Positions 2,101 to 25,231 of a stretch of DNA of 61,501 bases are shown one piece after another. A program made the translations under genes and the position numbers. The DNA comes from a virus (lineage: Duplodnaviria; Caudoviricetes): IMG/VR virus record IMGVR_UViG_3300028007_000002, positions 1 through 61,501 of that record, one strand, 5' to 3'. Within the stretch, counting starts at the first letter, position 1. Every line of letters begins with the position of its first letter. Under the pieces are notes generated by a model, which was not told the DNA's origin, did no database searches, and was given only the letters and a program-made list of their open reading frames with translations.

Positions 2101-2211
2101 TCGTGGCACGCGGTCCGGCGTCGGGCGAGGGGCAGCGGGACGATCGGCAAGCGATCCGCGCGGTTGAACACAATCCAGGCTAAGACTATGCCTATCTAAT
2201 AAACTGCTACA

Positions 2212-2427
2212 GTGAACGACACACCGTCACCCGATACTGAGGTTTATTGTCATTGCTGCGGTCAGATGCTCGGGAAGTGGCGTCCGGGGTCGATTTACCT
2301 GCGCATCCGCGGCCGGTTATCGATCATCCGAGGGGCTGATCTCTCGCTTGATACGCGGTGTGAGCGCTGCGGCACCGTGACGAAAATCCAGGTTCCCAAT
2401 CCCAACCATTGTCCAGACAGGTTCTAA
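2212..2427 (+). CDS. zinc-ribbon protein, Com-like
   Basis: VYCHCCGQMLG...RCERCG. Confidence 0.6.
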   Translation: MNDTPSPDTEVYCHCCGQMLGKWRPGSIYLRIRGRLSIIRGADLSLDTRCERCGTVTKIQVPNPNHCPDRF

Positions 2428-2437
2428 CTGGTACACT
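2409..2437 (+). promoter_or_regulatory. putative sigma70-type promoter
   Basis: TTGTCC-N17-TACACT, followed by a GC-rich hairpin with a T-rich tail (about 2459-2507). Confidence 0.4.
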
Positions 2438-2518
2438 GCCGTCAAAGCGTGGCATCAGGCCGCCGAGAACCGACCCAGGTAGGTCAGTTCCCGGCGGCTT
2501 TCTATTTGCCCGCGGGAC

Positions 2519-3316
2519 GTGGTGATGGATCCCATTCGATTCAGTCAGTCTGGCCAGGTACCCACCCCAATTCGTACCGGCAAAGAGCCCTATCGCTTTT
2601 CCGATCGACACAAGGTCGCCCTTGTCTTAGACGCTGTCGCGGCCGAGTACGGCACGACTATAGAACGACTTCAAGGGCGCGGTCGGGATCTACCGGCCAA
2701 CCTGGCTCGGCAGGCCGCGACCATTCTGCTGTCCCAGCTCCTCACCATCACAAACTCAGAGATCGGGCGCATCCTTGGCGGGCGAGATCACTCGCGGATT
2801 GCCGAGGCCCGGGCGAAGCTCCCGCTTCTGATCCTCGACACTCACTGGCGTGAATGCTACGAGGCTGCCTATCGTTCGGCGCTGATTGAACTCGAAGCTT
2901 TTGAGCGGGGCAATGCGACCGCTCAAGCACCAGGTGACGACGACGGCTTCCTGCCCCTCGTTCCGGTGCAGGTGGCGAGTTACCAGCAGGTCCCGGTCGT
3001 CATCGTGGCGGTGACGCCGAGTCGCCGTCGCTGTCGGGTTCGGTTCGCCGGGTCACCGCCGGCCGGCCTGCCTGAAACGACAATCTTGGTTGCCGGCGAC
3101 CTTCGCCCCCCGCCGCGGCTGGTGGTTGGCCTCGATGAACTCACGGCCTACGCCTCATTCTGGAGTAAGGTCGAGGAGAGCGGGTTAACCAATGGCCGAC
3201 ATCAGGATCAGTATCATCGGGCCAAGCTCGTGCTGACGACACTCCGCTACGGGGAAGACAGCGAACCGGTTGCCGAGCCGCCGGATGCCCTGCCGGGTCT
3301 GAGCGCAACCGCTTAG
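2519..3316 (+). CDS. protein with DnaA domain IV-like HTH; possible transcription regulator
   Basis: VLDAVAAEYG...GRGR...ARQ...EIGRILGGRDHS matches the DnaA C-terminal domain pattern. Confidence 0.7.
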   Translation: MVMDPIRFSQSGQVPTPIRTGKEPYRFSDRHKVALVLDAVAAEYGTTIERLQGRGRDLPANLARQAATILLSQLLTITNSEIGRILGGRDHSRIAEARAKLPLLILDTHWRECYEAAYRSALIELEAFERGNATAQAPGDDDGFLPLVPVQVASYQQVPVVIVAVTPSRRRCRVRFAGSPPAGLPETTILVAGDLRPPPRLVVGLDELTAYASFWSKVEESGLTNGRHQDQYHRAKLVLTTLRYGEDSEPVAEPPDALPGLSATA

Positions 3317-3317
3317 G

Positions 3318-3363
3318 CCTGCGCGGAACCGGCCCCGGGACAGCCTCCAGCCGCCTACCATGG
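3318..3363 (+). promoter_or_regulatory. repeated promoter-like motif, copy 1
   Basis: CCTGCGCGGAAC-N23-GCC-TACCAT-GG. Confidence 0.55.
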
Positions 3364-3534
3364 TCCGTTGGAGGCGTCCCATTTCTCACCAGCCGATTGA
3401 CCTGAGATCCGTCGCTAAGCGCGACGGTCACTTGTGCTGCCCTGCCTGTGATCAGTGGACAAGCAAGCTGGTTCTGCTGCGCGACGGACGGATTCTCTGT
3501 GTCCGCTGCGCCGGCCGAAAAGTGGTCTCCTAGA

Positions 3535-4506
3535 ATGACCGTTCTCGGAAACCAGTCGTCGGTCATTTTCGGAAGCCAGACGACACAACCGGACCCGGCC
3601 ACCCCCTTTGCCTTCGCGGCGGATCAGAACCCGGCTACCGTCTATCTGGCGCGGCTGGCTCCCGGCTCCCGACCGACGATGCGTGCAGCACTCGAGACCA
3701 TCGCCCGGTTGGTGTCGTCCGGAACCCATGATGCGACGGCTCTCCCGTGGGGCGCTCTCCGTTATCAGCACACGATGGCCATTCGGGCCGCCCTGTCCGA
3801 TCGCTACTCGCCGGCGACCGCCAACCGTCATCTCGCGGCCTTGCGTGGAGTCCTGAAGGAAGCCTGGAGGCTGGGCCATCTGACGGCTGAGGAATATCAA
3901 CGAGCGGCGGATCTTGGGCCGGTCCGCGGATCGACCGTTGCCAAGGGGCGAGCACTCGGCGGCGATGAACTCATGAATCTGCTGGCCGCGTGCGCCGCCG
4001 ATGACGGACCGGCCGGCTCTCGTGATGCCGCTCTCATCGCCACGCTGTACGCGAGCGGTCTGCGTCGGGCTGAGGTAGTGGCCATCGACCTATCAGACCT
4101 CGACCTTCCGGAGGCTCGTCTGCTCGTCCGCTCAGGCAAGGGCAACAAGGGGAGATTGGTCTATGTGGAGGCGGCGGTGGGTCAGCTCAGCGGCTGGCTG
4201 ACGGTGCGCGGGGATCATGCCGGCGCACTCTTCGTTCCAATTCATCGCTCCGGCCGGCTGACCTGGCGGCGCATGACCCCGGAGGCAGTTTTGGCCATCA
4301 TGAGAAAGCGTGCGATCACGGCAGGACTCGCTCACTTCAGTCCGCATGACCTGCGGCGTACCTTCATCTCCGACTTACTCGATGCCGGCGCCGACCTGTC
4401 CACCGTACAGGCTCTTGCTGGTCACTCCACGCCGAAGACGACGGCGCGTTATGACCGGCGTGGTGAGCGGGCCAAACGACGAGCCGCAGGATTGTTGAGT
4501 TTGTAG
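3535..4506 (+). CDS. tyrosine recombinase (XerC/D-like); start uncertain, ORF open from 3448
   Basis: GLRRAE, GKGNK, HDLRR, AGH, TARY: complete R-K-H-R-H-Y catalytic set. Confidence 0.9.
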   Translation: MTVLGNQSSVIFGSQTTQPDPATPFAFAADQNPATVYLARLAPGSRPTMRAALETIARLVSSGTHDATALPWGALRYQHTMAIRAALSDRYSPATANRHLAALRGVLKEAWRLGHLTAEEYQRAADLGPVRGSTVAKGRALGGDELMNLLAACAADDGPAGSRDAALIATLYASGLRRAEVVAIDLSDLDLPEARLLVRSGKGNKGRLVYVEAAVGQLSGWLTVRGDHAGALFVPIHRSGRLTWRRMTPEAVLAIMRKRAITAGLAHFSPHDLRRTFISDLLDAGADLSTVQALAGHSTPKTTARYDRRGERAKRRAAGLLSL

Positions 4507-5082
4507 ATGGCTGCACGAAAATTCACCGAATTTCAGTGGAATGGACGGCGCGAGGAAGCAGCCTCGTTGTTGGCTCAGGATGTTCTCACGGATGAGCAGA
4601 TTGCCGAAAAGGTTGGAATCAGCCGGCGCCAACTCGCCAATTGGAAGCTGGTTCCGGAGTTCGCGGCGAAAGTGGCGTCAATCGTTGAGGAGACACGGCA
4701 GGCCCTTCAGCGTCGCGGGATCGCCGAGCGGCAGAACCGCGTCAATGCGCTGAATGACCGATGGGACCGGATGCAGCGGATCATCGCCGCCCGGGCCGAG
4801 GAATATCGGAATGTGCCCGGTGGTGAGACTGGACTCTTTGTCCGAGAGGTCCAGTTGGTGAAGGTCTACAACGGCGGCGATGATCCTGGTGACGAGGACG
4901 ACGTGCTGTACTCGGCCAAGAAATTCGTTGAGATCGAGAGGTTTTCGATCGATACCGGTCTGCTGAAAGAAATGCGTGCGCACGAAGAGCAGGCGGCCAA
5001 AGAGCTTGGCCAGTGGGCAGAAAAGATCCAGCAGACCGGCAATACCACGATCCGGGTGGTGTATGACGACCCTGAAGATTAA
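4507..5082 (+). CDS. terS: terminase small subunit (N-terminal HTH)
   Basis: HTH (DEQIAEKVGISRRQLANWK), AAKELGQW motif, directly upstream of TerL. Confidence 0.75.
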   Translation: MAARKFTEFQWNGRREEAASLLAQDVLTDEQIAEKVGISRRQLANWKLVPEFAAKVASIVEETRQALQRRGIAERQNRVNALNDRWDRMQRIIAARAEEYRNVPGGETGLFVREVQLVKVYNGGDDPGDEDDVLYSAKKFVEIERFSIDTGLLKEMRAHEEQAAKELGQWAEKIQQTGNTTIRVVYDDPED

Positions 5083-6277
5083 GCTGCCGCGGCCGCACGC
5101 CGGGCAGCGTCAGGTCATTCAGGAGGCGCAACGGTTCAATGTGCTGGCGTGCGGTCGGCGCTTTGGTAAGACGACGTTCGGCATCGACCGGGTGATCGGC
5201 CCGGCGCTGGAGGGTTATCCGACGGCCTGGTTTGCCCCGACCTACAAAATGATGGCCGAGGTTTGGCGTGTCGCCCGTCAGGTGCTTCAGCCGGTGACCG
5301 CGGTGATCAATAGCCAGGAGAAGCGCTTGGAGTTGATCACGGGCGGCGTCGTCGAAATGTGGTCGCTGGATTCACCGGATGCGGCGCGGGGCCGGAAGTA
5401 TCGTCGAGCTGTGATCGACGAAGCGGCGATGATCCGATCTTTACAAGAGGCGTGGCAGGCGGTCATCCGACCGACGTTGACCGACTATGAGGGCGACGGC
5501 TGGTTCCTTTCGACGCCGAAGGGCGCTAATTTTTTCCGGCAGATGTATTTCTGGGGACAGGATCCCGGCTTCTCGGACTGGCAGAGCTGGCGGATGCCGA
5601 CCACGACGAATCCGTTCATTAAGGTCAGCGAGGTCGAGTCGGCGCGGCGAGAACTTCCGGAGCGCACGTTTGCCCAGGAGTACCTTGCTGAGTTCCTTGA
5701 GGATGCCGGCGGCGTGTTCCGTCGGGTGGAAACTTGCGCGACTCTGCCGGGGCTAGCGACGCCCGATCCGAGGCGACCGCGGCAAACGGTGATTGGCGTC
5801 GATTGGGCCAAGACCTACGATTTCACGGTCTTAGTGGTCATTGATGTTCGATCCGGGGATGTGGTCGATCTCGATCGGTTCAACCAGATTGACTGGGCGG
5901 TCCAGAGGAGCCGGCTGCGGGCACTATGGGAGAAATGGCGATCCACAACCATTCTTGCGGAGCGCAATAGCATCGGCGATCCGAACATCGAGGCGTTGCA
6001 ACGTGAAGGGCTGCCGATTCAGGGTTTCACGACGACGAATGCGACCAAGACCGAGATCATCGAAGGGTTGGCACTCGCCATTGAGACCGAGCAGATCCAC
6101 TTCCCGAAGATCCCGGAGTTGATCGGGGAACTTCAGAGTTACGAGATGGAACGGTTGCCCAGCGGGTTGATTCGGTACGGGGCTCCCGATGGGACGCATG
6201 ACGACATCGTGATGGCGCTGGCCCTGGCGCGCTATGCGGCGCACAACGGGATGAGCCGGCGGCTGGTCACCTGGTAG
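5063..6277 (+). CDS. terL: terminase large subunit
   Basis: Walker A CGRRFGKT, Walker B VIDEAA, STPKG, nuclease IGVDWA and HDDIVMALALA. Confidence 0.95.
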   Translation: MTTLKIKLPRPHAGQRQVIQEAQRFNVLACGRRFGKTTFGIDRVIGPALEGYPTAWFAPTYKMMAEVWRVARQVLQPVTAVINSQEKRLELITGGVVEMWSLDSPDAARGRKYRRAVIDEAAMIRSLQEAWQAVIRPTLTDYEGDGWFLSTPKGANFFRQMYFWGQDPGFSDWQSWRMPTTTNPFIKVSEVESARRELPERTFAQEYLAEFLEDAGGVFRRVETCATLPGLATPDPRRPRQTVIGVDWAKTYDFTVLVVIDVRSGDVVDLDRFNQIDWAVQRSRLRALWEKWRSTTILAERNSIGDPNIEALQREGLPIQGFTTTNATKTEIIEGLALAIETEQIHFPKIPELIGELQSYEMERLPSGLIRYGAPDGTHDDIVMALALARYAAHNGMSRRLVTW

Positions 6278-6285
6278 AGGGGACA

Positions 6286-7653
6286 ATGGACGAGATCACG
6301 CGAGCGCTTCAGGAGTTGAGGCGACGCCGGGCAGGCTATCAACTCTACTCGAACTACTACGAGGGCAACCATCGACTGACTTTTGCGACGGAGAAGTTCC
6401 GGAACACGTTCGGCAACCTTTTTCGGGAGTTCGCCGATAATTTGTGCCCGGCCGTGGTCGATGCCGTGTCCGACCGACTAAAGTTGATCGGCTTTGATGT
6501 GGAGGATGGGCCGGCCGGTGCAGCCGATGTGGCGTGGGAATTGTGGCAGGTCAATCGGATGGACGAACGCATGGGCGAGATTCATACCGAAGCTCTGATT
6601 GCCGGCGATGGGTATGCGATCGTCTGGCCCGATCCGCGAACAGGCCAACCAACCATCTATCCCCAGGACGGGACCTCGATGACGGTCCGGTACGATCCTG
6701 AAGTGCCCGGACACATCCTCTCCGCGGTCAAGGCGTGGCAGACGGAAGATGAATTCGTGCGGGTGACCTTGTACTTCCCCGATCGGATCGAGAAGTGGAT
6801 CACGCGATCGGCCTGTCCGGCGGGCTGGCCAGAATCAAGCCAAGCGTTTGTGCCTTACGAGGTGCCCGGGGAAGCGTGGCCGCTCCAGCACGACTATGGC
6901 CGGGTGCCGGTCTTCCACTTCGCCAACAACAGCCGGATGGGACGATCCGGCAAGAGCGAGTTAAAAGACGTTGTGCCCCTCCAGGACTGTTTGAACAAGA
7001 GTCTTTGCGACTTGATGGTTGCGCGAGAGTTTCTTGCTCTTCCGCAGCGGTATGCGACAGGGCTTCAGTTCGATATTGACCCGGAGACCGGGAAGCCGAT
7101 CCCCCTCTTTGTGCCGGGCGCCGATCGTGTCTGGGCGACCCAAAGCAAGGACGTGACCTTTGGTCAGTTCGAGGCGGCGGACCTCGGGCAGTTCATCCAA
7201 GAGCAGGACAGCTTCCGGGCCGAGATCGCCCGGGTGAGCCGGACGCCATTGCACTATCTGTTGCCCCAGAGTGGTGAGTTTCCGAGCGGGGAGGCCCTCA
7301 AGACGGCCGAGTCGCCGTTCTTGGCCAAGGTGATGAAACGGCAGACGGCTTTTGGGAATGTCTGGGAGGACCTGATCGGGTTTGCGCTCCAGATGGTGGG
7401 ACAGTCGGGGGTACGGCTCTCGGCGCTTTGGGAGGATCCGGCGCCGCGGTCGGAGAAGGACCAGGGCGAGGTTCTCCTGATCAAGAAGCAGATCGGCGTG
7501 GACGACGAGACCTTGCTCGGTGAGCTCGGCTACGCCCCCGAGCAGATCCGGGTGATGCTCGCTAAGAAGCAGGCAACTGCGGCCGAGGCTCAACGGACCA
7601 TGCTGCGCACTTTCGATCGGGGCGGTTCAGATCCGGATGAAGAAGTTGCCTAA
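6286..7653 (+). CDS. portal protein (SPP1 gp6-like)
   Basis: YYEGNH, NLCPAVVD, HDYGRVPVFHFAN, GKSEL, SGEALK; follows TerL. Confidence 0.9.
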   Translation: MDEITRALQELRRRRAGYQLYSNYYEGNHRLTFATEKFRNTFGNLFREFADNLCPAVVDAVSDRLKLIGFDVEDGPAGAADVAWELWQVNRMDERMGEIHTEALIAGDGYAIVWPDPRTGQPTIYPQDGTSMTVRYDPEVPGHILSAVKAWQTEDEFVRVTLYFPDRIEKWITRSACPAGWPESSQAFVPYEVPGEAWPLQHDYGRVPVFHFANNSRMGRSGKSELKDVVPLQDCLNKSLCDLMVAREFLALPQRYATGLQFDIDPETGKPIPLFVPGADRVWATQSKDVTFGQFEAADLGQFIQEQDSFRAEIARVSRTPLHYLLPQSGEFPSGEALKTAESPFLAKVMKRQTAFGNVWEDLIGFALQMVGQSGVRLSALWEDPAPRSEKDQGEVLLIKKQIGVDDETLLGELGYAPEQIRVMLAKKQATAAEAQRTMLRTFDRGGSDPDEEVA

Positions 7654-8890: not shown

Positions 8891-9067
8891 GTGAGCGCGT
8901 CGCTGGCTGATCACCGAGGCATTCTCCGCTTCAGTGATGCTGACTTGAGGCGGCTCCTGCAACGGGCCACGGCGGACCTGGCCGGCCGCGAGATCCGGAT
9001 CCTCCACGCCGATCTTTGGACTGACGGCGGCCGGCACTACCTGAAGGTGTTCATTACCACGCCGTGA
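8891..9067 (+). CDS. small hypothetical protein (58 aa, not in ORF track)
   Basis: MSASLADHRGILRFSDADLRRLLQRA...YLKVFITTP; overlaps the stop of a 46-aa ORF starting at 8754. Confidence 0.4.
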   Translation: MSASLADHRGILRFSDADLRRLLQRATADLAGREIRILHADLWTDGGRHYLKVFITTP

Positions 9068-9148
9068 TTCAGTTGGCCTTTCTCGCGGACCTCTGTCTGA
9101 TCTCCCTCTTGCTCGCGGTTCTGCGCTCTCTGCCCACTCCGGATCGTC

Positions 9149-11236
9149 ATGCCAGATATCTACGACCTCGCTGACCAGCATCGTGCCGAACTGCTGCGCC
9201 GGGAGCAGGCTGCCGCCGGCGCGATGGTGCGCGCCTACGGTCTGGCCTGGCAGCGGATCGAGCGTGACCTGAACGCCCTTTCGCGGCAGATCGAGGACAC
9301 GCGATCACGCGGCGAGGAGATCTCGCCGGCGTGGCTGCTCCGTCGGGACCGGCTGACCGAACTTCAGCGGCAGACGGAGATCGCGGTCGACCAGTTCGCC
9401 GCGTCGGTCGATCACACCATCCAGCAGGAGCAGACACGGGCCATCGAGGCGGGGCGACGTCACGCCGGTCAACTGATGCAGGCCGCAGCGGGTGGCGGGG
9501 CCGAGCTCGTCGGTAATTTTGCTCAGGTGCCGACGGGGGCACTGACCACGATGGTGGGGATGCTGGGCAATGGATCCCCGCTCCGGTCGCTCCTGGATCA
9601 GTTCGGGCTGGCGGCGAGTCAGGCTGTGGGCGATGCGTTGATTGAGGGGCTGGCCATCGGCCAGAACCCGCGGATGATTGCCCGGCGAATCCGGGATGCC
9701 CTCGACGGGAACATGGTCCGGGCGCTGACGATTGCTCGGACGGAGACGCTTCGAGCCTATCGCGAAGCCACCCGACAGACCTACGCGGCGAACAGCCGGG
9801 TAGTGAAGGGGTGGATCTGGCACTGCGCGCTCGATCGCCGGAGCTGCGCACTGTGCGTGGCCATGCATGGGAAGCGGTTTGACGTTCAGGAGCGATTCGG
9901 CACGCATCCCAATTGCTTTCCGGCCGGGACTGTTGCGTCAGGTCCCAGAGCGGTAGGGAGTACTGAGCGGTGGTATGAAGGCGATCTTGTCGAAATAGAA
10001 ACTGCCAGGGGGCACCGGCTTTCCGTCACCCCGAATCACCCGGTACTGACGGCGAAAGGTTGGGTCGCGGCGGGATTCCTCCAAGAAGGTGACGATGTAG
10101 TCAGCAGCATCGGAAGTCAGGGGCCAATTCCGGGAATCGACCCAGATGATTATCAGGTTCCAGCCCTGATCGAGGAGGTAGCACGATCGGTCGGGGGTTC
10201 GACTCCGATGCGAGCCGTAGGCATGCCAACCGCCCCCGAAGATTTCCACGGCGACGGGATCGGCTCCAAGGTCCACGTTGTACGGACCAATGGCCTTCTG
10301 AGGCGTACTCTCAATCCCTCGCTCTTCCAACCACCTCTTGAGCAATTCCTCGGTCGAGGATACCCCCAGCCGCCGCTCTTCTCGGGTCTTCGCTGTTTTG
10401 CATCGTTCTTCGATCGTCTTGACTCGGCCTCGAACGGCGGCATGGGCTGCCTCCGTCAGCCGTCTGTTGTCCTCAGGGCTGCGTCGCTCGGCCATCAACC
10501 GGTTTGCCTCGACAGAGCCTCGGCGGGGAACCCCCGCTTCGCGGAGTCGAACTCCGATGACGTTGCGAGACACTCCGTACTCTTCAGCCAAAGCCTTTTC
10601 GGACTCTCCCGCCAAATACCGGGCGGAGATTTCCGGCATGGGCAGGGGGATGTAGGCACGTCTTCGAGCGCTCGCGCGTTCACCCGCCAGCAGGTAGCGA
10701 GCGGCCTTGTCACGCCACAAACCCCGGTCCTTGATAGCCTCGCGGAGTCGCTGCTCACTAATGTGAAATCGAGCAGAGGCGTTCTGGCAGCTTTCGCCGG
10801 CGATGTAGGACTGGATCGCATTCTCAAGATCAGCCGCCGAAGCTTTCGTGGGCATGTCTACAACCTCGAAACAACTGAGGGGTGGTACCACGCCAACGGT
10901 ATTGTAGTTCACAATTGTCGCTGCGCGATGATTCCGGAAACCCGGACCTGGGACGAGTTGGGCTTCCGGGGCATCGCCGAAACCTCGGTTCAGGTGGAGG
11001 CCGGCGCCGACTGGTTTGCTCGGCAGTCAGTCGATCTCCAGCGGGAGATTCTGGGGCCAACGAAGCTGGTTGCTTATCAGGGCGGGGCGATTCGGCTGGA
11101 GGATCTGGTTGGGGTGCGGCAGGATCCACGGTGGGGCATCACCCGCCACCAGTTGAGCCTGCGGCAGCTCCTCGGCCCGGCTGAAACCAATCGCTGGCGG
11201 GTTGCGGCCGGGCTTCCACCGCAGCATCCAGTTTGA
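9149..11236 (+). CDS. minor capsid/head morphogenesis protein (Mu gpF/SPP1 gp7-like) containing an intein
   Basis: RALTIARTETLRAY, CALCVAMHG; the HPNCRC motif is split by a 334-aa insert. Confidence 0.9.
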   Translation: MPDIYDLADQHRAELLRREQAAAGAMVRAYGLAWQRIERDLNALSRQIEDTRSRGEEISPAWLLRRDRLTELQRQTEIAVDQFAASVDHTIQQEQTRAIEAGRRHAGQLMQAAAGGGAELVGNFAQVPTGALTTMVGMLGNGSPLRSLLDQFGLAASQAVGDALIEGLAIGQNPRMIARRIRDALDGNMVRALTIARTETLRAYREATRQTYAANSRVVKGWIWHCALDRRSCALCVAMHGKRFDVQERFGTHPNCFPAGTVASGPRAVGSTERWYEGDLVEIETARGHRLSVTPNHPVLTAKGWVAAGFLQEGDDVVSSIGSQGPIPGIDPDDYQVPALIEEVARSVGGSTPMRAVGMPTAPEDFHGDGIGSKVHVVRTNGLLRRTLNPSLFQPPLEQFLGRGYPQPPLFSGLRCFASFFDRLDSASNGGMGCLRQPSVVLRAASLGHQPVCLDRASAGNPRFAESNSDDVARHSVLFSQSLFGLSRQIPGGDFRHGQGDVGTSSSARAFTRQQVASGLVTPQTPVLDSLAESLLTNVKSSRGVLAAFAGDVGLDRILKISRRSFRGHVYNLETTEGWYHANGIVVHNCRCAMIPETRTWDELGFRGIAETSVQVEAGADWFARQSVDLQREILGPTKLVAYQGGAIRLEDLVGVRQDPRWGITRHQLSLRQLLGPAETNRWRVAAGLPPQHPV
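9914..10915 (+). mobile_element. intein (334 aa) in gpF-like protein
   Basis: Starts CFPAGT; block B LSVTPNHPVLT; block F VYNLETTEGWY; ends VVHN; +1 residue Cys; removal restores HPN|CRC. Confidence 0.9.
9938..10855 (-). CDS. endonuclease encoded antisense within the intein (HTH repeats plus DUF559/Vsr-like PD-(D/E)xK domain)
   Basis: GAGG before ATG 10855; two Y.AGES HTH-like repeats; SSTEELL...QKAIGPYNVDLG...VAVEIFGGGWH...QGWNLIIIW. Confidence 0.8.
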   Translation of the reverse strand: MPTKASAADLENAIQSYIAGESCQNASARFHISEQRLREAIKDRGLWRDKAARYLLAGERASARRRAYIPLPMPEISARYLAGESEKALAEEYGVSRNVIGVRLREAGVPRRGSVEANRLMAERRSPEDNRRLTEAAHAAVRGRVKTIEERCKTAKTREERRLGVSSTEELLKRWLEERGIESTPQKAIGPYNVDLGADPVAVEIFGGGWHAYGSHRSRTPDRSCYLLDQGWNLIIIWVDSRNWPLTSDAADYIVTFLEESRRDPTFRRQYRVIRGDGKPVPPGSFYFDKIAFIPPLSTPYRSGT

Positions 11237-11306
11237 GGGCGAGGGCGAACGATGAACCAGTGCGCCGTCGTCACCCGCATTGACTGTGGCCCTCAATTTC
11301 AAACAG

Positions 11307-11351
11307 CCTGCGCGGAACTCGTTTCCCCCTCGGATGAGCGGCCTATCATGG
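11307..11351 (+). promoter_or_regulatory. repeated promoter-like motif, copy 3
   Basis: CCTGCGCGGAAC-N22-GCC-TATCAT-GG upstream of scaffold and capsid genes. Confidence 0.55.
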
Positions 11352-11370
11352 CGCCTGATGCGCGACCATT

Positions 11371-11394
11371 CATCCGGGAAGCATCCGGGAAGCA
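11371..11394 (+). repeat. 11-nt tandem repeat in scaffold leader
   Basis: CATCCGGGAAG x2 followed by CA, just before the RBS. Confidence 0.7.
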
Positions 11395-11405
11395 CTGAGG
11401 GAAAC

Positions 11406-11990
11406 ATGCCTGACGAGCAGACGGGCCAGGAGCCCAACCCGACCGGCCAGGAGCCGACCGGGACCGCCGGCAGTGAGTCCACCGCCACGACGCAAACCAC
11501 GCCGTCAAGCGCCGGAGCCGAAACGCAGCAATTCACGGCTGAGTACGTGTCGCAGCTGCGTCGGGAAGCCGCCGAGAACCGCACCAAACTCCGCGCCCTG
11601 GAGGCGGCGGAAAAGAAGCGGCAGGAAGCGGAGATGACCGAGTCGCAGAAGCTTCAAGCGAGGGTGACCGAACTGGAGGCCAATCTGACGGCGCGGGAAG
11701 CCCAGTTGCGGGAGACAACCCTCCGCACCGCGGTGACCGCCGCAGCCATCGAGGCAGGCGCCAGCAACCCGAGCGTGCTCGTGCGGCTGATTGACCCGAG
11801 TGCCGTCGAGTACGCCGAAGACGGTAGCCCGAAGAACCTGAAGAAGCTGGTCGAGGGGCTCAAGGCCCAGGTGCCTGCCCTCTTCAAACCCACGACACCG
11901 GGCGGGTCCGCTGATGCCGGCGCGTCCGGCAAGGCCGGCGGTGCCCCGTCGATGAATGACCTGATCCGCCAGCGGGCAGGTCGCTCCTAG
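11406..11990 (+). CDS. capsid scaffolding protein
   Basis: Low-complexity N-terminus (TGQEP x2), YVSQLRREAAENR coiled coil, GSADAG...SMNDLIR; precedes capsid gene. Confidence 0.85.
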   Translation: MPDEQTGQEPNPTGQEPTGTAGSESTATTQTTPSSAGAETQQFTAEYVSQLRREAAENRTKLRALEAAEKKRQEAEMTESQKLQARVTELEANLTAREAQLRETTLRTAVTAAAIEAGASNPSVLVRLIDPSAVEYAEDGSPKNLKKLVEGLKAQVPALFKPTTPGGSADAGASGKAGGAPSMNDLIRQRAGRS

Positions 11991-12019: not shown

Positions 12020-12065
12020 GAGGCCCGAGCCCAGTGAGGCCAGAGCCCTTCTGAGGACAGCTCTG
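12020..12065 (+). promoter_or_regulatory. tandem GAGGC-CNGA-GCC motif plus RBS-occluding hairpin (site 1, major capsid)
   Basis: GAGGCCCGAGCCC and GAGGCCAGAGCCC; stem CAGAGC-CCT/AGG-GCTCTG covers GAGG and the first base of GTG. Confidence 0.7.
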
Positions 12066-13012
12066 TGCCGTACAACAACATCACCGATCGCTCTGATGCC
12101 TCTGCCCTGATTCCCGAGGAGGCCGCGTCGCAGATCATTCAGGATCTGCCGAAAACCTCTGTCGCCCTGACCCGGTTCCGTCGGGTGACCATGAGCCGCA
12201 AGCAGCAGCGCATGCCGGTTCTTTCGGCCCTGCCGACCGCCTACTTCGTGGAAGGCGATACCGGTCTGAAGCAAACCACCGAACAGGCTTGGACCAACAA
12301 GTACCTGAACGCCGAAGAGTTGGCCGTCATCGTACCAATTCCGGAAGCCGTGCTCGATGACACCGAGTTCGACATGTGGACCGAGATCCGGCCGCGACTG
12401 GTTGAAGCTCTCGGGATCGCCGTCGATGGCGCCGTGCTTTTCGGCACCAACAAGCCGGCGAGCTGGCCCGACGCGATCGAAGATGGTGCGGCCGCGGCTG
12501 GCAACGCCTTCACTCGCGCCAGCGTGGCCAACAAGGACCTGGTTCACGACATCAACAAGTGCATGGGCTTGGTCGAGGCTGACGGTTTCGACGTGAACGG
12601 TTTCCTGGCGCGGAAGAGCCTGAAGGCCGACCTCCGAGATCTGCGGGACAGCAACGGCCAGCCGATTTATTCTGCCAGCCTGACCTCGCCGACGCCGATG
12701 ACGGTCTACGCCGAGCCAGTGCAGTACGTCGACAATGGCGCCTGGGATAACACGCGGGCTGATCTCATCTGCGGCGATTTCACGCAGGGGATCATGGCGG
12801 TCCGGCAGGATCTCCAGTGGAAGCTGCTGAGCGAGGCCGTGATTCAGGATAACACCGGCGCCATCATCTACAACCTCGCCCAACAGGATATGGTCGCCCT
12901 GCGCGTGACCATGCGGGTGGCTTTCCAAGTCGCTAACCCCACCACGCGCCTGAACCCCAACGGGAGCACCCGCTACCCGTTCTCGGTTCTCCGGCCGGCC
13001 GGCTTCGTCTAA
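12065..13012 (+). CDS. major capsid protein (HK97 fold)
   Basis: LIPEE, AYFVEG, AEELAVIVPIPEAVLDD, GDF, NLAQQDMVALRVTMR. Confidence 0.92.
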   Translation: MPYNNITDRSDASALIPEEAASQIIQDLPKTSVALTRFRRVTMSRKQQRMPVLSALPTAYFVEGDTGLKQTTEQAWTNKYLNAEELAVIVPIPEAVLDDTEFDMWTEIRPRLVEALGIAVDGAVLFGTNKPASWPDAIEDGAAAAGNAFTRASVANKDLVHDINKCMGLVEADGFDVNGFLARKSLKADLRDLRDSNGQPIYSASLTSPTPMTVYAEPVQYVDNGAWDNTRADLICGDFTQGIMAVRQDLQWKLLSEAVIQDNTGAIIYNLAQQDMVALRVTMRVAFQVANPTTRLNPNGSTRYPFSVLRPAGFV

Positions 13013-18539: not shown

Positions 18540-18708
18540 CGAGCAGCGCTTTCTCTACCGCCTGGCGCGCGACCTCAAGACGACGGTCGCGGAGTTGGAG
18601 CGGCGGATGACGGTCCGCGAGTTCAACCGCTGGCTGGCGTTCTACAACCACGAGGCCCGCGAAGAGAAAAAGGCGGCCGAACGGGCCAAGCGCCGTCGCG
18701 GGCGATAA
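18526..18708 (+). CDS. gpT-like C-terminal extension of the chaperone, in the +1 frame
   Basis: FLYRLARDLKTTVAELERRMTVREFNRWLAFY; no start codon upstream of this conserved block; TCC TTT CGC at 18522-18530. Confidence 0.65.
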   Translation, partial: FATNSEQRFLYRLARDLKTTVAELERRMTVREFNRWLAFYNHEAREEKKAAERAKRRRGR

Positions 18709-18714
18709 CCCCCC

Positions 18715-18766
18715 GAGAGGCCGGAGCCCGAGAGGCCGGAGCCCACTTCGTTTGGAGTGGGCTTTT
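18715..18766 (+). promoter_or_regulatory. tandem motif plus RBS-occluding, terminator-like hairpin (site 5, tape measure)
   Basis: GAGAGGCCGGAGCCC x2; AGCCCACTTC-GTTT-GGAGTGGGCT followed by TTT. Confidence 0.75.
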
Positions 18767-18769
18767 CCT

Positions 18770-21700
18770 TTGTCCGAAATCGCCAAACTCTTCGTAAAAA
18801 TCGGCGCCGACGTCAAGGACGCAATGTCCGGCTTCGACGCCGTTCACAGCCGAATTGAGTCATTCGGCAAGTCGGCGGCGACGACCGGCGCGGTCATGAC
18901 GGCCGGCCTGACCGTGCCGTTGCTGGGCACGGCGAAGGCGGTTGGTGACGTCGGGATTTCTTTCGAGTCGGCTTTCGCTGGCGTACGGAAGACGATCGAT
19001 GCGACTGAGGAAGAGTTCGCCCAACTGCGGACCGGGATCCGCGACATGGCCAAAGAGATCCCGACGGCCCGGGAGGAGATCGCCGGCGTGGCCGAGGCAG
19101 CCGGGCAGCTCGGCATCGCGAAGGAAAGCGTTCTCGGTTTCACCCGCACGATGGTGGACTTGGGCGTCGCGACAAATCTGACCGCCCGGGAAGCGGCCAC
19201 CGATCTGGCGCGGTTCGCCAACATCACTCGGATGCCCCAGACCGAGTTCCAAAACCTCGGCTCGACGATTGTGGCGCTCGGAAATAACTTCGCGACGACC
19301 GAGCGCGAGATCGTGGCGATGGGCATGCGCATCGCCGGCGCTGGATCAACGGTCGGGATGACGCAGTCCCAGATTATGGGCTTCGCGACGGCCCTGTCGA
19401 GCGTGGGCATCGAGGCAGAAGCCGGCGGCACGGCGATCTCGCGGGTGTTCGTGGACATCGCCAATGAGGTGGCCTCGGGCGGCAAAAAGCTGACGGAATT
19501 CGCCAAGGTCGCTGGCATGTCCGCGTCTGAGTTCTCGGATCGGTTTAAGACCGACGCCGCCGGCGCCGTGACGGCTTTCATCGGCGGGCTGGGGAGGATT
19601 CGGGACAGCGGTGAGAACGTCTTCGCGGTCTTGGAGAAGCTCGACATGAGCGACATCCGGGTTCGCGACGCGCTGCTCCGATCGGCCGGTGCGGGGGATC
19701 TGCTCGGTGACGCAATCGCCTTGGCAAGCAAGGCCTGGGATGAGAACAACGCGCTGACCAAAGAGGCCGAGCAGCGGTACGCGACGGTGGAGTCGATGCT
19801 CCAGATCGCCAAGAACAAGTTCACGGATCTGGGCATCACGATCTTCGATCGGGTGCGGCCGGCGTTGGTCTCGGCTCTCGGGATTGTCGAGGGAGTCACC
19901 GGCGGACTCAAGGGACTCATCGATCGGTTGGCCGAGGCTGATCCGCGACTTCTCGCGGCCGGCGCTGCCTTCCTCGGCGTATTGGCTGCGGCCGGCCCGG
20001 TGATCGGCATCGTGGGCGCACTGGCGACTGGATTGGCATTCTTGATGACTCCGATCGGGCTGATTGTGGCCGGGGTGGCGCTGCTTGCCGCCGCCTTTGC
20101 CGCAGATTTCCTGGGCATCCGGACAACGGTCCTCGGCTTCGTGGCAGCCGTGCAGCCGATCCTCTCCGCGTTCCTGGCTTTTCTCTCGACAGGCAGCTTC
20201 AGTTCCCTCGCCGACTTCAGCGCCGCTATCACCAAGGCGTTCGGCCCGGATGCGGTGGCTCTTGCGTTCGGCTTCGCCACCCAGGTTCAAGCAGCTCTCG
20301 AGAAGGTGAAGGCGATCGCCGCCGGCTTTGCCTCCGGCGGATTAGCCGGCGGAGCGACGAGCATCCTGTCTCAGATCTTTGGGATGGACGAGGATGCCGC
20401 GACCGGACTCATCCAGCGCGTCACCGGTCTGATAGGCCGCGTGGTGTCCACCGCTCAAGAGGTGATCGGTGCGTTTGCGTCCGGCGGCCTGGCCGGCGGC
20501 GCCATGAAGATCGGTGAAATCCTGGGCCTGGACGAAGCCGAAATCGGCCGAATTGTGGGGCTGGTGAGTTTCGCTTTCGGCGAGATCGTCAGCTTCGCCC
20601 AGACCCACCTGCTGCCAGGCCTCATGAACGTCGGGTCGGCTATTCAGTCCAACGTGATCCCAGCCATCATCCAGATTGGCCAGTTCGTGGTGACCGAGGT
20701 CATACCACGATTGGCGGAGCTGGAGGCGATGATCGCCTCCCGAGTCGTCCCCATTTTGACCCAGTTGGCGGGGTTCCTGATCGGGAACGTCGTCCCGGCT
20801 ATCCAGCAACTCGCGGCGAATTTCCAGAAGTTCGTGGGAGAGATTCTCCCACTAATCGGGCCAGCCATGGACGGTCTGATGAATAACATCGCGACTGTTT
20901 TGGCGGCTATCAGTGCCTTCTGGCAGGAACACTGGACTTCGATCCAGCGGGTGTTGCAGTCCACCTGGGACGTGCTCAAGAGCGTGGTCGAAGTGGGGCT
21001 GACGCTGATCTCGGGGTTAATCAAGACCATCTTGCGTGTGATCGCCGGGGATTGGGAAGGCGCTTGGGACGAGCTGAAAGCCACTCTGGAGAAAACCTGG
21101 CAGGTGATGCAATCGAACCTGGAGACATCTCTGATCCGGTTTGGGGCACTGATCATCGAGGGCCTCAAAACGCTGGAGTCCAAAGGCCGGGAGGCTGCTC
21201 AAGCGATCGGTCGGGCCATCGTGGACGGCATCACCGGGGCGCTCAATGCCGGATGGAGCAAGATCCAGGAGGCGGCCAGCGGGCTGGCGGACGCGATCCC
21301 CTCGACCGTTAAGAGCATTCTCGGGATCCGCTCACCGTCTCGGGTCATGTCCGAGCACGGGACCCAAGTGGTGGCCGGCCTGGCCCAGGGCATTACATCG
21401 AAGAAGGATCTGGTCAACGCGGCCACCAAGTCTCTCTCAATGGGTCTGATCGAAGAGTCGCAGAAACTGCTTCGGATGACCGAAGACATCGGCAAGCAGA
21501 TGCCGGTCCGGATCGCGGCCGGCATCCGGGCCGCCGAGAAAAAGTCCATCTACGCGGTAGAGAGTTTTGGTGACCGGCTCAATCGGTCATTCCACGATGA
21601 CAATCTGAGCTTCAAAGACGTGCTCTCGGAGCACTACGGCGTGCCCTATCTTGAGTCGATCTTTCAGGCCGGCCAAACGGAACTAAACCGCGTCTACGCC

Positions 21701-21859
21701 GAGGAAGCGAAGGCACGCGAAGAGCAAGCCATCACCGACGCCAAGATCATCAGCCTGTTGGAATACATCGCCGAGAAGGAAACCCGGCTGAACCGGAGCG
21801 ACCTGGCAGAACTCGGCAAGGTGGCCGCCAACGCTATCCGTGTCAAGGAGATGCGCTAA
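18770..21859 (+). CDS. tail tape measure protein (TP901-like core); probable TTG start
   Basis: FESAFAGVRKT, AEAAGQLGI, LGNNFATTE, EAGGTAISR, LGIRSPSRV; about 1030 aa, Ala/Gly-rich. Confidence 0.95.
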   Translation: MSEIAKLFVKIGADVKDAMSGFDAVHSRIESFGKSAATTGAVMTAGLTVPLLGTAKAVGDVGISFESAFAGVRKTIDATEEEFAQLRTGIRDMAKEIPTAREEIAGVAEAAGQLGIAKESVLGFTRTMVDLGVATNLTAREAATDLARFANITRMPQTEFQNLGSTIVALGNNFATTEREIVAMGMRIAGAGSTVGMTQSQIMGFATALSSVGIEAEAGGTAISRVFVDIANEVASGGKKLTEFAKVAGMSASEFSDRFKTDAAGAVTAFIGGLGRIRDSGENVFAVLEKLDMSDIRVRDALLRSAGAGDLLGDAIALASKAWDENNALTKEAEQRYATVESMLQIAKNKFTDLGITIFDRVRPALVSALGIVEGVTGGLKGLIDRLAEADPRLLAAGAAFLGVLAAAGPVIGIVGALATGLAFLMTPIGLIVAGVALLAAAFAADFLGIRTTVLGFVAAVQPILSAFLAFLSTGSFSSLADFSAAITKAFGPDAVALAFGFATQVQAALEKVKAIAAGFASGGLAGGATSILSQIFGMDEDAATGLIQRVTGLIGRVVSTAQEVIGAFASGGLAGGAMKIGEILGLDEAEIGRIVGLVSFAFGEIVSFAQTHLLPGLMNVGSAIQSNVIPAIIQIGQFVVTEVIPRLAELEAMIASRVVPILTQLAGFLIGNVVPAIQQLAANFQKFVGEILPLIGPAMDGLMNNIATVLAAISAFWQEHWTSIQRVLQSTWDVLKSVVEVGLTLISGLIKTILRVIAGDWEGAWDELKATLEKTWQVMQSNLETSLIRFGALIIEGLKTLESKGREAAQAIGRAIVDGITGALNAGWSKIQEAASGLADAIPSTVKSILGIRSPSRVMSEHGTQVVAGLAQGITSKKDLVNAATKSLSMGLIEESQKLLRMTEDIGKQMPVRIAAGIRAAEKKSIYAVESFGDRLNRSFHDDNLSFKDVLSEHYGVPYLESIFQAGQTELNRVYAEEAKAREEQAITDAKIISLLEYIAEKETRLNRSDLAELGKVAANAIRVKEMR

Positions 21860-23792: not shown

Positions 23793-25231
23793 TGGGCTGG
23801 CTGGCGCTCCCCACGATCCAGACGGGTCAGATCCTCTCGGCCGAACATTGCAACCGGATCGCCGCAAATCTGGACTACCTGCTGACACTTGAGGCGTACG
23901 GATCGCCGCTCTCCCGGGTCTGGCGCTACCAGGCCAGCAATTGGCTGCATTCCGGCGGCGCCGATCAAAACTACCAGATGGCCTGGCAGGGGTGGATCCG
24001 TTATTGGTCGCCGACGCTCTTCTGGCGCTACTACGTCTACCGAACCAGCGAGCAGTCGTGGGATGCGGGCTACCCCTCACCGGCGTACCAGACCACGAAT
24101 AGCTACTGCGCGACCGGATCGTCCTCCTACGTGAAGATCCAGATCGACACGACGGGCGCCGGCGGCTGGGTGGACCTGCTCGGGGAAACAACCTACACGA
24201 CTGAGGGACGGATCACGGGATCGGCCTATCTGGTTGGTCTCGCCCTGACGCAGGGGAATGTCTATGGAATCCGCGTGCTGGCCAAAAACGTCGGCCTTTT
24301 CACCGAAGCGATCTATCAGGGCGGCGGTGTGCTCGGCCGGACCTGGCAGACACTCCCGACGGTCACAGATGGCGCGGCGAGCACGGCGGCGCACTTTAAT
24401 GACCGCTGGCACAACAACCTTGAGTATCTCCGCGAGGGCCTCTCGGGGCCGTGGGCACCGACTGGCGGGATGCTGGAGGGCGAGGTCGTCGGAACCACCC
24501 ATCCAGCCTACCGTGCCTGGACACGGCGGGTTGGGGATTATCTGGCCTACCGGTTCGGTGCCCGGAATACCGATCTCGGTGGGGCCGCCAACACCTTCGC
24601 GCTCGAGGTGAACGGTCAATCGGTCGCCACTGTGACCACGGATGGGGGCAAGAGCGGTAGCACCTACAACCCCGATTACGTGATCGCCGAGGGTCTCGCC
24701 AACCTGAACGCACTCGCCACGCCACCCGCGAAGGGAGCGTGGTACGAAGTCACGCTCCGGCGCACCGTGAATCCGGGCGGCTCCGGCAACGGTGCGCGGC
24801 CGGCCGTGAACTACCTGTTCGAGGTGAACGGCGCACCCTCACTTACGGGCTGGACCACTCCAGCCACCTGGGGCCACGGTGACTATCCCGCCGGCCAGCC
24901 GGTTTCGGATCGGCTCAGGGTGTGGAATGACGACCTGACGACGCTCAAGAGTCGCGTGGACGGGGCGATCAGTTTCGCGGTGCGACAGCAGTCGGATCAG
25001 TATCTGTATCGCCGCGGCGACGTCCTGCTCTGGGACGGGACCAACGTTCAACTCTACTGGGCGGGCGGCCGGGCCGGCGCCCCGACGCAGGGCGGCAGTG
25101 TCTACCTCAACAACGGGCCAGGGAGTATCGACCTGCGGGCGCTCAGTCGCCTAACCTACGGCGGCTACTACTACCTGGCCGGGCCGCCAAATCAAGCCGC
25201 GACGATTCGGTACGGAATGGAGGTGCTGTAG
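23792..25231 (+). CDS. minor tail protein
   Basis: Repeated W..LPT...G...A...N...NL.YL units; TGATG coupling. Confidence 0.65.
   Translation: MGWLALPTIQTGQILSAEHCNRIAANLDYLLTLEAYGSPLSRVWRYQASNWLHSGGADQNYQMAWQGWIRYWSPTLFWRYYVYRTSEQSWDAGYPSPAYQTTNSYCATGSSSYVKIQIDTTGAGGWVDLLGETTYTTEGRITGSAYLVGLALTQGNVYGIRVLAKNVGLFTEAIYQGGGVLGRTWQTLPTVTDGAASTAAHFNDRWHNNLEYLREGLSGPWAPTGGMLEGEVVGTTHPAYRAWTRRVGDYLAYRFGARNTDLGGAANTFALEVNGQSVATVTTDGGKSGSTYNPDYVIAEGLANLNALATPPAKGAWYEVTLRRTVNPGGSGNGARPAVNYLFEVNGAPSLTGWTTPATWGHGDYPAGQPVSDRLRVWNDDLTTLKSRVDGAISFAVRQQSDQYLYRRGDVLLWDGTNVQLYWAGGRAGAPTQGGSVYLNNGPGSIDLRALSRLTYGGYYYLAGPPNQAATIRYGMEVL

Follow-up and report, generated by a model that had tools for sequence, protein, structure and literature searches.

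The stretch of DNA analysed here (the window, 61,501 nt) is the 61.5-kb viral record IMGVR_UViG_3300028007_000002 of IMG/VR, which is linear and is estimated to be 77% complete. It carries a Mu-F-like head-morphogenesis (minor capsid) gene with an intein and, on the strand opposite to the intein, an open reading frame (ORF) for a homing-endonuclease-like protein (Table 1). The 695-aa product of the head gene matches the Pfam family Phage_Mu_F (PF04233) at aa 159-253 with an E value of 2.8e-15 and a score of 57.5 bits (cut-off 29.6) as well as PHROG head and minor head protein families, and the gene is located between the portal gene and the genes for the scaffold and the major head protein, all on the plus strand. 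Its frame is continuous from 9149 to 11236, which rules out a split-intein or 'fractured gene' reading. Taking the intein out of the translated precursor rejoins an HPN-CRC motif, which is uninterrupted in the intein-free relatives L100 (HPQCRC), L013 (HPRCRC) and L089 (HPGGRC). A preliminary description, made from the letters of the window alone, had placed a 334-aa intein within this motif of a gpF-like protein, and the coordinates, the splicing residues and the Phage_Mu_F match agree with it. For the window extein a single relative was found in IMG/VR, which is intein-free and 42% identical; a close intein-free allele was not found in that database, and the 42% relative is too distant to inform on recent gain or loss.

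Table 1. Positions of the features in the window, from the head gene and its intein to the antisense gene and the neighbouring genes.
Feature	Position	Strand	Basis or remark
Mu-F-like head-morphogenesis (minor capsid) gene	9149-11236	+	ORF; 695-aa precursor including the intein
N-extein	9149-9913	+	translation; ends ...GTHPN
Class-1 intein, 334 aa	9914-10915	+	Cys1 ... His333-Asn334, then Cys+1
Cys1 (TGC)	9914-9916	+
N-terminal splicing region	9914-10111	+	block A at 9914; includes block B TPNH; evolves as sense-coded
Block B, T39-P-N-H42	10028-10039	+
Sense-frame 'shadow' linker, ~233 aa	10112-10810	+	open, sequence unselected; boundaries approximate
C-terminal splicing region, blocks F and G	10811-10915	+	...DRILKISRRSFRGHVYNLETTEGWYHANGIVVHN; sense-selected
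C-terminal His-Asn	10910-10915	+
Cys+1	from 10916	+
C-extein	10916-11236	+	translation; begins CRC...
Antisense homing-endonuclease-like gene, 305 aa	9938-10855	-	in codon register with the intein
Shine-Dalgarno sequence GAGG, 8 nt before ATG	10864-10867	-	complement of AA[C CTC], block F codons Asn-Leu (AAC-CTC)
First helix-turn-helix module, aa 12-43	10727-10822	-	Pfam HTH_28, E 6.1e-5
Second helix-turn-helix module, aa 73-118	10502-10639	-	Pfam HTH_58/HTH_7; 2lvs
Vsr-like/EDxHD-type nuclease domain, aa 166-250	10106-10360	-	profile matches
Catalytic candidate D195	10271-10273	-
Catalytic candidate E204	10244-10246	-
Catalytic candidate H211	10223-10225	-
Catalytic candidate D222-R223		-
C-terminal tail, aa 251-305	9941-10105	-	overlaps the N-terminal splicing region; evolves as sense-coded
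Integrase	3406-4503	+	head-module survey of window
Large terminase	4967-6274	+
Portal	6202-7650	+
Scaffold	11280-11990	+
Major head protein	12065-13012	+
Tape measure	18611-21856	+
1,404-aa ORF	24931-29142	+	downstream of tape measure

All hallmarks of a class-1 intein are present, namely the N-terminal Cys, the TxxH of block B, the C-terminal His-Asn and the Cys at position +1. The Pfam family Intein_splicing (PF14890) matches aa 276-589 of the sense product with 38.6 bits (cut-off 35.8), the match being restricted to positions 46-155 of the family's hidden Markov model. Across 54 sense inteins C1, T39, N41 and H42 are invariant, as are V315 and L318, and a profile of this family matches solved inteins, with E values of 6e-10 for the PI-MtuI mini-inteins and 1.4e-9 for the MJ0781 intein; the C-terminal splicing region aligns with the C-terminal strands of solved inteins. 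The segment leading from Cys1 up to block B has only 38 residues, and the profile aligns from position 24 to residue 55 of the PI-MtuI mini-intein; compared with the N-terminal HINT lobe as usually found, the window intein seems to lack about 30 residues. The absence of an in-frame LAGLIDADG or HNH motif that the preliminary description had noted was found again with Pfam at E<=1, where the sense insert matched Intein_splicing and no further Pfam family, LAGLIDADG and HNH families included.

The antisense ORF runs from an ATG at 10855-10853 to a TGA at 9940-9938, and would comprise 324 aa if started at a GTG at 10912. Positions 9149 and 10853 both leave a remainder of 2 on division by 3, so the two frames are in exact codon register. 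The ATG is the complement of the sense CAT of His314 in the block F sequence GHVYNLE, the stop TGA is the complement of a sense TCA (Ser), and the tail motif RQYRVIRGD of the antisense product is complementary to the block B sequence VTPNHPVLT. The ORF, its GAGG ribosome-binding site, its register, its start in block F and its overlap with block B are all as first described. A profile-profile comparison indicated that the sense and antisense products are unrelated (probability 0.2).

Searched as a single sequence, the antisense product gave only sub-threshold Pfam matches (HTH_28, HTH_58/HTH_7 and, at aa 172-239, REase MTES_1575) and nothing meaningful in the PDB; profiles were needed. A word-indexed search retrieved 345 homologous proteins at E<=1e-3, the best with 58% identity and an E value of 8.9e-102, several of which are named 'very-short-patch-repair endonuclease' by the Joint Genome Institute. 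These relatives are mostly located on contigs of about 1-1.5 kb, and metagenome assemblies may often break at the mobile intein-nuclease element. An exhaustive profile search of cluster representatives yielded 1,532 matches at E<=1e-30, 4,644 at E<=1e-10 and 19,682 at E<=1e-3, the last set probably including matches to the helix-turn-helix modules only. Among 121 aligned members E169, Y192, N193, D195 and R223 are invariant, R223 being preceded by an acidic residue at 222, and E204, G207, G208, W210 and H211 are at least 90% conserved. The Pfam family REase MTES_1575 (PF18741) was matched by 41 of 49 members and helix-turn-helix families by 16-25 of the 49, and a strict tail motif was present in 171 of 247 family proteins. 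Compared with the PDB, the 121-sequence profile matched the tandem helix-turn-helix structure 2lvs (E 4.9e-8) and, among nucleases or nuclease-like proteins, 3hrl (DUF559-like, endonuclease-like; E 0.0012), 3r3p (I-Bth0305I; E 0.0039) and, only weakly, Vsr (1cw0; E 0.14), which is consistent with the two helix-turn-helix-like repeats and the DUF559/Vsr-like nuclease proposed earlier.

The EDxHD family of homing endonucleases has I-Bth0305I as its prototype (Taylor et al. 2011, PMC3239194; PDB 3R3P). Like the antisense protein, I-Bth0305I has an N-terminal DNA-binding region with a putative helix-turn-helix and a C-terminal Vsr-like nuclease; it differs in being encoded on the sense strand, in a group I intron of phage recA, and the similarity is marginal (E 0.0039). 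In the alignment with 3r3p, D195 and H211 of the window copy fall on two alanines, and the crystallised protein is described as a D196A/H213A double mutant of catalytic residues (PMC3239194). E204 aligns with E206 of I-Bth0305I, and D222-R223 are placed at its D222. Because D195, E204, H211 and D222 align with the catalytic positions of I-Bth0305I (D196, E206 and H213, and an acidic residue at about 222 in both proteins), the window copy is, as far as the alignment can tell, one that keeps a complete EDxHD-type active site. Position 208 of I-Bth0305I is Asn, its counterpart in the window being Phe206.

The active site is not uniform in the family. In L002 (Aaphi23), L087 (Klebsiella), L086 (Salmonella VSe101), L088 (Vibrio), L085 (Pseudomonas) and L001 (Fosterous) the active-site Asp and Glu are kept and the His of the GGGWH motif is absent, with sequences such as ...AVELTAFTGRY..., ...GGGWAC... 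and ...GGGWSR... in its place. The ORFs of the cultured-phage relatives that lack this His are still long and open, at 43-49% GC. Such relatives may be catalytically altered or nuclease-dead DNA-binding proteins, and nuclease activity may not be universal in the family.

The arrangement seen in the window recurs widely. A tblastn search with the antisense protein yielded 130 phage records, and in all seven that were inspected (Gordonia phages Fosterous and Malisha, Aaphi23, Pseudomonas vB_Pae_BR313c, Salmonella VSe101, Klebsiella KpTDp1 and Vibrio 1.197.A) the match is antisense to an annotated head-protein coding sequence and the antisense ORF is unannotated. The same layout, again without annotation, is found in a closed 40.8-kb record of Ca. 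Promineifilum breve, giving 8/8 records overall. This record (L140, NZ_LN890657.1) is the circular 'Plasmid III' of 40,759 bp, which contains phage head genes together with the intein and antisense-nuclease unit; it is probably a phage or a phage-plasmid. Gene callers report the antisense ORF mainly where the long sense gene is truncated.

A scan of IMG/VR confirmed at least 575 loci, of which the best 80 were kept and combined with 3 phage loci. In 82 of these 83 viral loci the in-register sense frame has a length of at least 286 codons, and the other two sense-strand frames never exceed 191 codons. In bacterial genomes the in-register frame spans at least 294 codons in 49 of 50 loci, which are distributed over the Chloroflexota, Actinomycetota, Pseudomonadota, Bacteroidota, Cyanobacteria, Bacillota, Gemmatimonadota, Armatimonadota and Acidobacteriota, candidate-phyla-radiation lineages and others. 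The sense frame stays open in relatives down to 42% GC. The preliminary description had named a lack of conservation of the antisense ORF in related inteins as an observation that would speak against it; the ORF is conserved, both in the 1,532 representatives at E<=1e-30 and in the layout of the viral and bacterial loci. Where the junctions could be read, the insertion site is a common one, H-x-x^C ... (H or S)N^C-x-C (the caret marks the junction). Ten exteins tested against Pfam comprise five Phage_Mu_F, one Phage_min_cap2 and two VG15 proteins, and two with none of these three. The nearest nuclease relatives of the window copy come from Ktedonobacterales (56%), Micromonospora and Anaerolineae assemblies (Chloroflexota, Actinomycetota).

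The in-register antisense frame is generally considered the most permissive one for overlapping genes. In this register a stop codon on one strand corresponds to TTA, CTA or TCA on the other, and the intein frame stays open because the nuclease gene avoids these two Leu codons and one Ser codon. The expected number of such codons was calculated from the extein codon usage of each locus for 56 of 65 non-redundant loci, the other nine having too few extein codons. In the antisense frames of the 56 loci 275 TTA, CTA or TCA codons were expected; none can lie within the overlap, and the 26 that were counted are all located in stretches of the stop-to-stop frames beyond the sense ORF. The probability of having none was 2e-7 for Aaphi23 (43% GC) and 1e-9 for L060 (42% GC). 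Judged against these codon-usage expectations, the open sense frame in the low-GC relatives is not explicable by chance.

We also examined which strand is under selection, using a codon alignment of 65 non-redundant sequences, built after removal of L013 and L048, of truncated loci and of those that exceeded 90% identity to another. In the antisense-guided alignment the codon-position variability switches strand at about 10110 and about 10830, and the pattern was unchanged after a sense-guided realignment. From 9914 to about 10110 and from about 10830 to 10915 the third positions of the sense codons vary most, and the amino acid identity of the sense product is 0.35-0.65, which is above that of the antisense product. 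Between these two segments it is the third positions of the antisense codons (the first of the sense codons) that vary most (0.6-0.72), and antisense identity (0.21-0.70) is higher than sense identity (0.13-0.58, and 0.13-0.2 over most of the linker). On this measure the middle of about 700 bp is selected on the antisense strand and the splicing blocks on the sense strand. Since both variability and identity favour the antisense strand there, the intein middle of about 233 aa reads as a 'shadow' of the nuclease gene, as had been suspected, and by the same yardstick the N-terminal splicing region has its own shadow in the last ~55 residues of the nuclease ORF. Both strands look constrained in two short stretches, at ~10800-10850 and around the active site at ~10130-10270. 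Within the latter, the sense sequence VPALIEEV... (aa 73-96, ~10130-10200) aligns with the linker helix IPARVQALADAL of the PI-MtuI construct 2imz, and its complement is aa 219-242 of the antisense protein, with YLLDQGW, a highly conserved motif of the nuclease; both strands may be functional here.

The signals for translation of the antisense ORF are conserved as well. Its start falls at one aligned column, with ATG in 48 and GTG in 7 of the 65 sequences and a Met two codons on in most others, and the upstream family consensus, CTGGAGGTTGTAnAC-ATG, is the complement of His-Val-Tyr-Asn-Leu-Gln. The Leu codon of block F is CTC in 52 of 61 loci, where extein usage would give 15.4; among the loci with a GC content below 0.56 it is CTC in 13 of 15, where 1.7 would be expected. 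Over the 35 codons upstream of the start, only those sense third positions that form the Shine-Dalgarno sequence are unusually conserved. These signals in block F are the strongest indirect evidence for translation of the antisense ORF. The nuclease may, as the preliminary description proposed, be expressed independently of the late head gene. No unusual RNA structure was found in the 5' region of the nuclease gene (z 0.26). A single weak hairpin resembling a terminator, on the minus strand at 10019-10004, is located inside the ORF and was discounted.

To compare the divergence of the nuclease, the splicing blocks and the host protein, we used 1,540 pairs from 57 loci, taking the last 150 residues of the N-extein. 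On average, the two members of a pair shared an identity of 0.37 in the nuclease, 0.46 in the splicing blocks and 0.13 in the N-extein, and nuclease identity correlated with that of the splicing blocks with r 0.61, as against 0.27 for the extein. Among the 22 pairs with a nuclease identity of at least 0.5, extein identity was below 0.25 in eight. The window and L005, for example, share 0.51 of the nuclease, 0.67 of the splicing blocks and 0.13 of the extein residues. By these identities the nuclease moves with the splicing domain rather than with the host gene.

Four loci depart from the common layout. In L013 (2797-4325), L048 (2860-4715) and L100 (about 2200-3700) a Mu-F gene without an intein is followed directly downstream by a free-standing nuclease gene in antisense orientation. 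A duplicated piece of C-extein (...SHCRCSLGLGDDNG) remains at the far end of L013, in L048 the sense frame is closed and the block-B 'shadow' motif is retained, and in L100 the HPQCRC motif is intact. The shadow motif is readable in both L048 (GEYRVIRG) and L100 (EYQVVWGDG), though no intein frame is left. In L137 (about 2300-3500) the nuclease frame has a stop and a deletion and the linker is lost, and the intein frame (FHPR^C ... THN^CRC) is open; this locus looks like decay towards a mini-intein. From their sequences, the four look like stages of separation and decay. The direction could also be the opposite, with the derivatives as stages of origin by invasion, as proposed in a 2025 preprint (Gosselin, Arsenault, Gogarten, bioRxiv 10.1101/2025.01.02.630785).

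This kind of element is not new. It was first described in that preprint, which reports anti-sense VSR-like endonucleases in minor-capsid inteins of actinophages and was the one paper with an antisense Vsr-like layout found in our full-text literature searches. According to its text, the inteins that invade minor capsid proteins had non-canonical endonucleases only, and the actinophage inteins share with the window a contiguous minor capsid (Mu-F) intein without an in-frame endonuclease and an antisense Vsr-like ORF between the splicing blocks. The HHpred link to 3R3P given there agrees with the match of our 121-sequence profile. The survey of the preprint is confined to actinophages in PhagesDB, whereas the window copy is on an uncultivated viral contig. 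A term search of its main text found no mention of ribosome, promoter or proteobacteria and no relevant use of 'Shine' or 'codon'; the search did not cover other wordings of the register idea. What is added here is the register rule, the translation signals in block F, the spread across many phyla and the free-standing and decayed derivatives. The preprint places the inteins of Affeca and 'Angelicase' in an endonuclease-VII-like cluster; our tblastn search found a Vsr-like antisense ORF inside the MuF-like minor capsid genes of Affeca and Angelicage, which may carry two non-canonical inteins.

Three other systems are comparable in part. In 'fractured genes', split inteins have a free-standing Vsr-like endonuclease gene between their halves (Dassa et al. 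2009, PMC2677866). As in the window, the same nuclease superfamily is associated with inteins in phage-like DNA, and a separate translation unit is situated at the usual endonuclease insertion point. In the fractured genes, however, intein and host gene are divided over two ORFs and spliced in trans, whereas the sense frame of the window is continuous (cis) and the nuclease is in register on the opposite strand; their hosts are DNA-metabolism enzymes and not Mu-F. No endonuclease on the opposite strand is described in the passages of that article that were examined. Anti-sense LAGLIDADG ORFs have been noted in inteins, as in DnaX of Synechocystis (Gorbalenya 1998, Gogarten 2002, as cited in 10.1101/2025.01.02.630785), where the endonuclease is likewise on the strand opposite to the intein and belongs to a different nuclease family. 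For the Mu F (gp30) intein of a Mu-like prophage of Methylococcus capsulatus, the genome paper states that it 'lacks a recognizable endonuclease' (Ward et al. 2004, PMC517821); by analogy it may be a case of the same antisense phenomenon, which we offer as a lead only.

Taking these results together, we are confident, short of certainty, that the window contains a mobile intein in which one strand encodes the splicing domain and the other strand of the same DNA, codon for codon, the homing nuclease. The anatomy and the homologies of both products point to it, as do the purifying selection that changes strand, the conserved translation signals and the maintenance of both frames; the selection on the antisense strand, the conserved start and Shine-Dalgarno sequence and the open sense frame at low GC all support the dual-coded mobile element of the preliminary description. 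In the mechanism that we envisage, the late head operon would give a Mu-F precursor from the sense strand, in which the HINT halves (about 66 aa at the N end and about 35 aa at the C end) would be joined by a peptide of about 233 aa that is the mere complement of the nuclease gene. Protein splicing, which the sense-strand selection on the blocks and the occurrence in cultured phages make plausible, would excise all 334 aa and restore HPN-CRC. A separate antisense mRNA, possibly made at another time, would be translated from the ATG complementary to the block F His, by way of the Shine-Dalgarno sequence in the Asn-Leu codons. Its product, with two helix-turn-helix modules and a Vsr-like nuclease, would most likely cut intein-free Mu-F alleles near the site coding for HPNCRC during co-infection, and repair after the cut would copy the whole intein-nuclease unit into the recipient. 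We further lean towards the view that the codon-register layout is a selected and ancient design, in which the start and the ribosome-binding site are hard-wired in block F, TTA, CTA and TCA are banned, and the unit hops among Mu-F, 'minor capsid 2' and VG15 genes that are hardly related to each other, in phages from well over ten phyla of bacteria.

Several observations weigh against this interpretation. Because the loci were gathered through the antisense protein, the openness of that frame is partly a selection effect, from which the openness of the sense frame is free. In the window by itself (63% GC) the open sense frame is statistically unremarkable, with 2.1 sense stops expected across the antisense gene and a probability of 0.11 of finding none, and the GC content by codon position is uninformative (0.68 vs 0.64 in the middle). 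No sigma-70-like promoter was found on either strand in 9000-11800, nor a conserved -10-like element upstream of the nuclease start in the family. With a stretch from Cys1 to block B that is about 30 residues shorter than in solved inteins, the ability to splice cannot be taken for granted. The PDB support for the nuclease fold is marginal, at E values of about 1e-3 from a sequence profile only, and the His of GGGWH is absent in the relatives from Aaphi23, Klebsiella, Salmonella, Vibrio and Pseudomonas. Finally, the signal of recent homing at the nucleotide level is weak among near-identical pairs, the best hints of transfer being L023/L025 (intein 100%, N-extein 95.1%) and L005/L006 (intein 100%, C-extein 87.5%).

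Some of these observations fit an alternative in which the antisense gene is real and selected and is not, or is no longer, a homing enzyme: it could encode a DNA-binding regulator or a nickase for DNA metabolism or exclusion, or be a once-free endonuclease that shelters in the linker. The long open frames of the gamma-proteobacterial phage relatives without the GGGWH His, the free-standing genes beside intein-free Mu-F genes in L013, L048 and L100 and the faint trace of recent homing all speak for such a gene. The window copy, however, retains every conserved catalytic position, variation in the gene follows that of the splicing blocks rather than that of the extein, one homologous site is occupied in three extein families, and the related I-Bth0305I is a proven homing endonuclease (PMC3239194), so that we consider this alternative unlikely.

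A more drastic possibility is that insertion of the nuclease gene inactivated the Mu-F gene, with an intein that no longer splices and an open sense frame that is functionless, as the unusually short N-terminal splicing region might suggest. We find this very hard to maintain, since the low-GC loci keep the sense frame open against strong expectation, the splicing blocks are under purifying selection in the sense frame with C1, T39, N41 and H42 invariant, and the element is present in plaque-forming cultured phages. The antisense ORF might also be nothing but a chance 'shadow' of a GC-rich gene, the intein then being an endonuclease-less mini-intein with a long linker, like the M. capsulatus intein as described (PMC517821). 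ORF length alone proves nothing in this regard, because DNA of 63% GC also gives an in-register shadow ORF of 200 aa over the N-extein (9305..9907). This explanation, to which we give next to no credence, is already contradicted by homologues with E values down to 8.9e-102, by the invariant or nearly invariant catalytic residues, by purifying selection that falls on the antisense frame in the middle, by about 300 codons being open at 42-49% GC and by the conservation of the Shine-Dalgarno sequence and the ATG.

Elsewhere in the window, the integrase gene is located directly upstream of the large terminase gene, on the same strand, and going by this gene the virus is probably temperate. The 1,404-aa ORF downstream of the tape measure gene matched no PHROG (E<=1e-5) and no Pfam family (E<=1e-3), and from its position it presumably encodes a tail or host-recognition protein. 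Neither tRNA genes nor matches to any Rfam family were found in the window.

In the usual view an intein has a single reading frame, and the antisense gene is never called by automatic annotation, being unannotated in all eight public records that were inspected; such inteins are therefore classed as endonuclease-less and presumed to be immobile. If the layout is indeed a selected design, Mu-F inteins for which no endonuclease was recorded, as in 2004 for the prophage of M. capsulatus, may be capable of full mobility, and the nuclease would be free to be expressed at another time than the late structural gene. The family illustrates how the same DNA can serve two proteins with little conflict, one strand being selected at a time, at the cost of three forbidden codons and with the translation signals placed in a conserved splicing block. 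It offers a clean natural model for antisense overlapping genes and for the joining and separating of free-standing nucleases and inteins. In practical terms it bears on phage annotation and on intein engineering, as the splicing halves appear to tolerate between them a linker of some 230 aa whose sequence is unselected.

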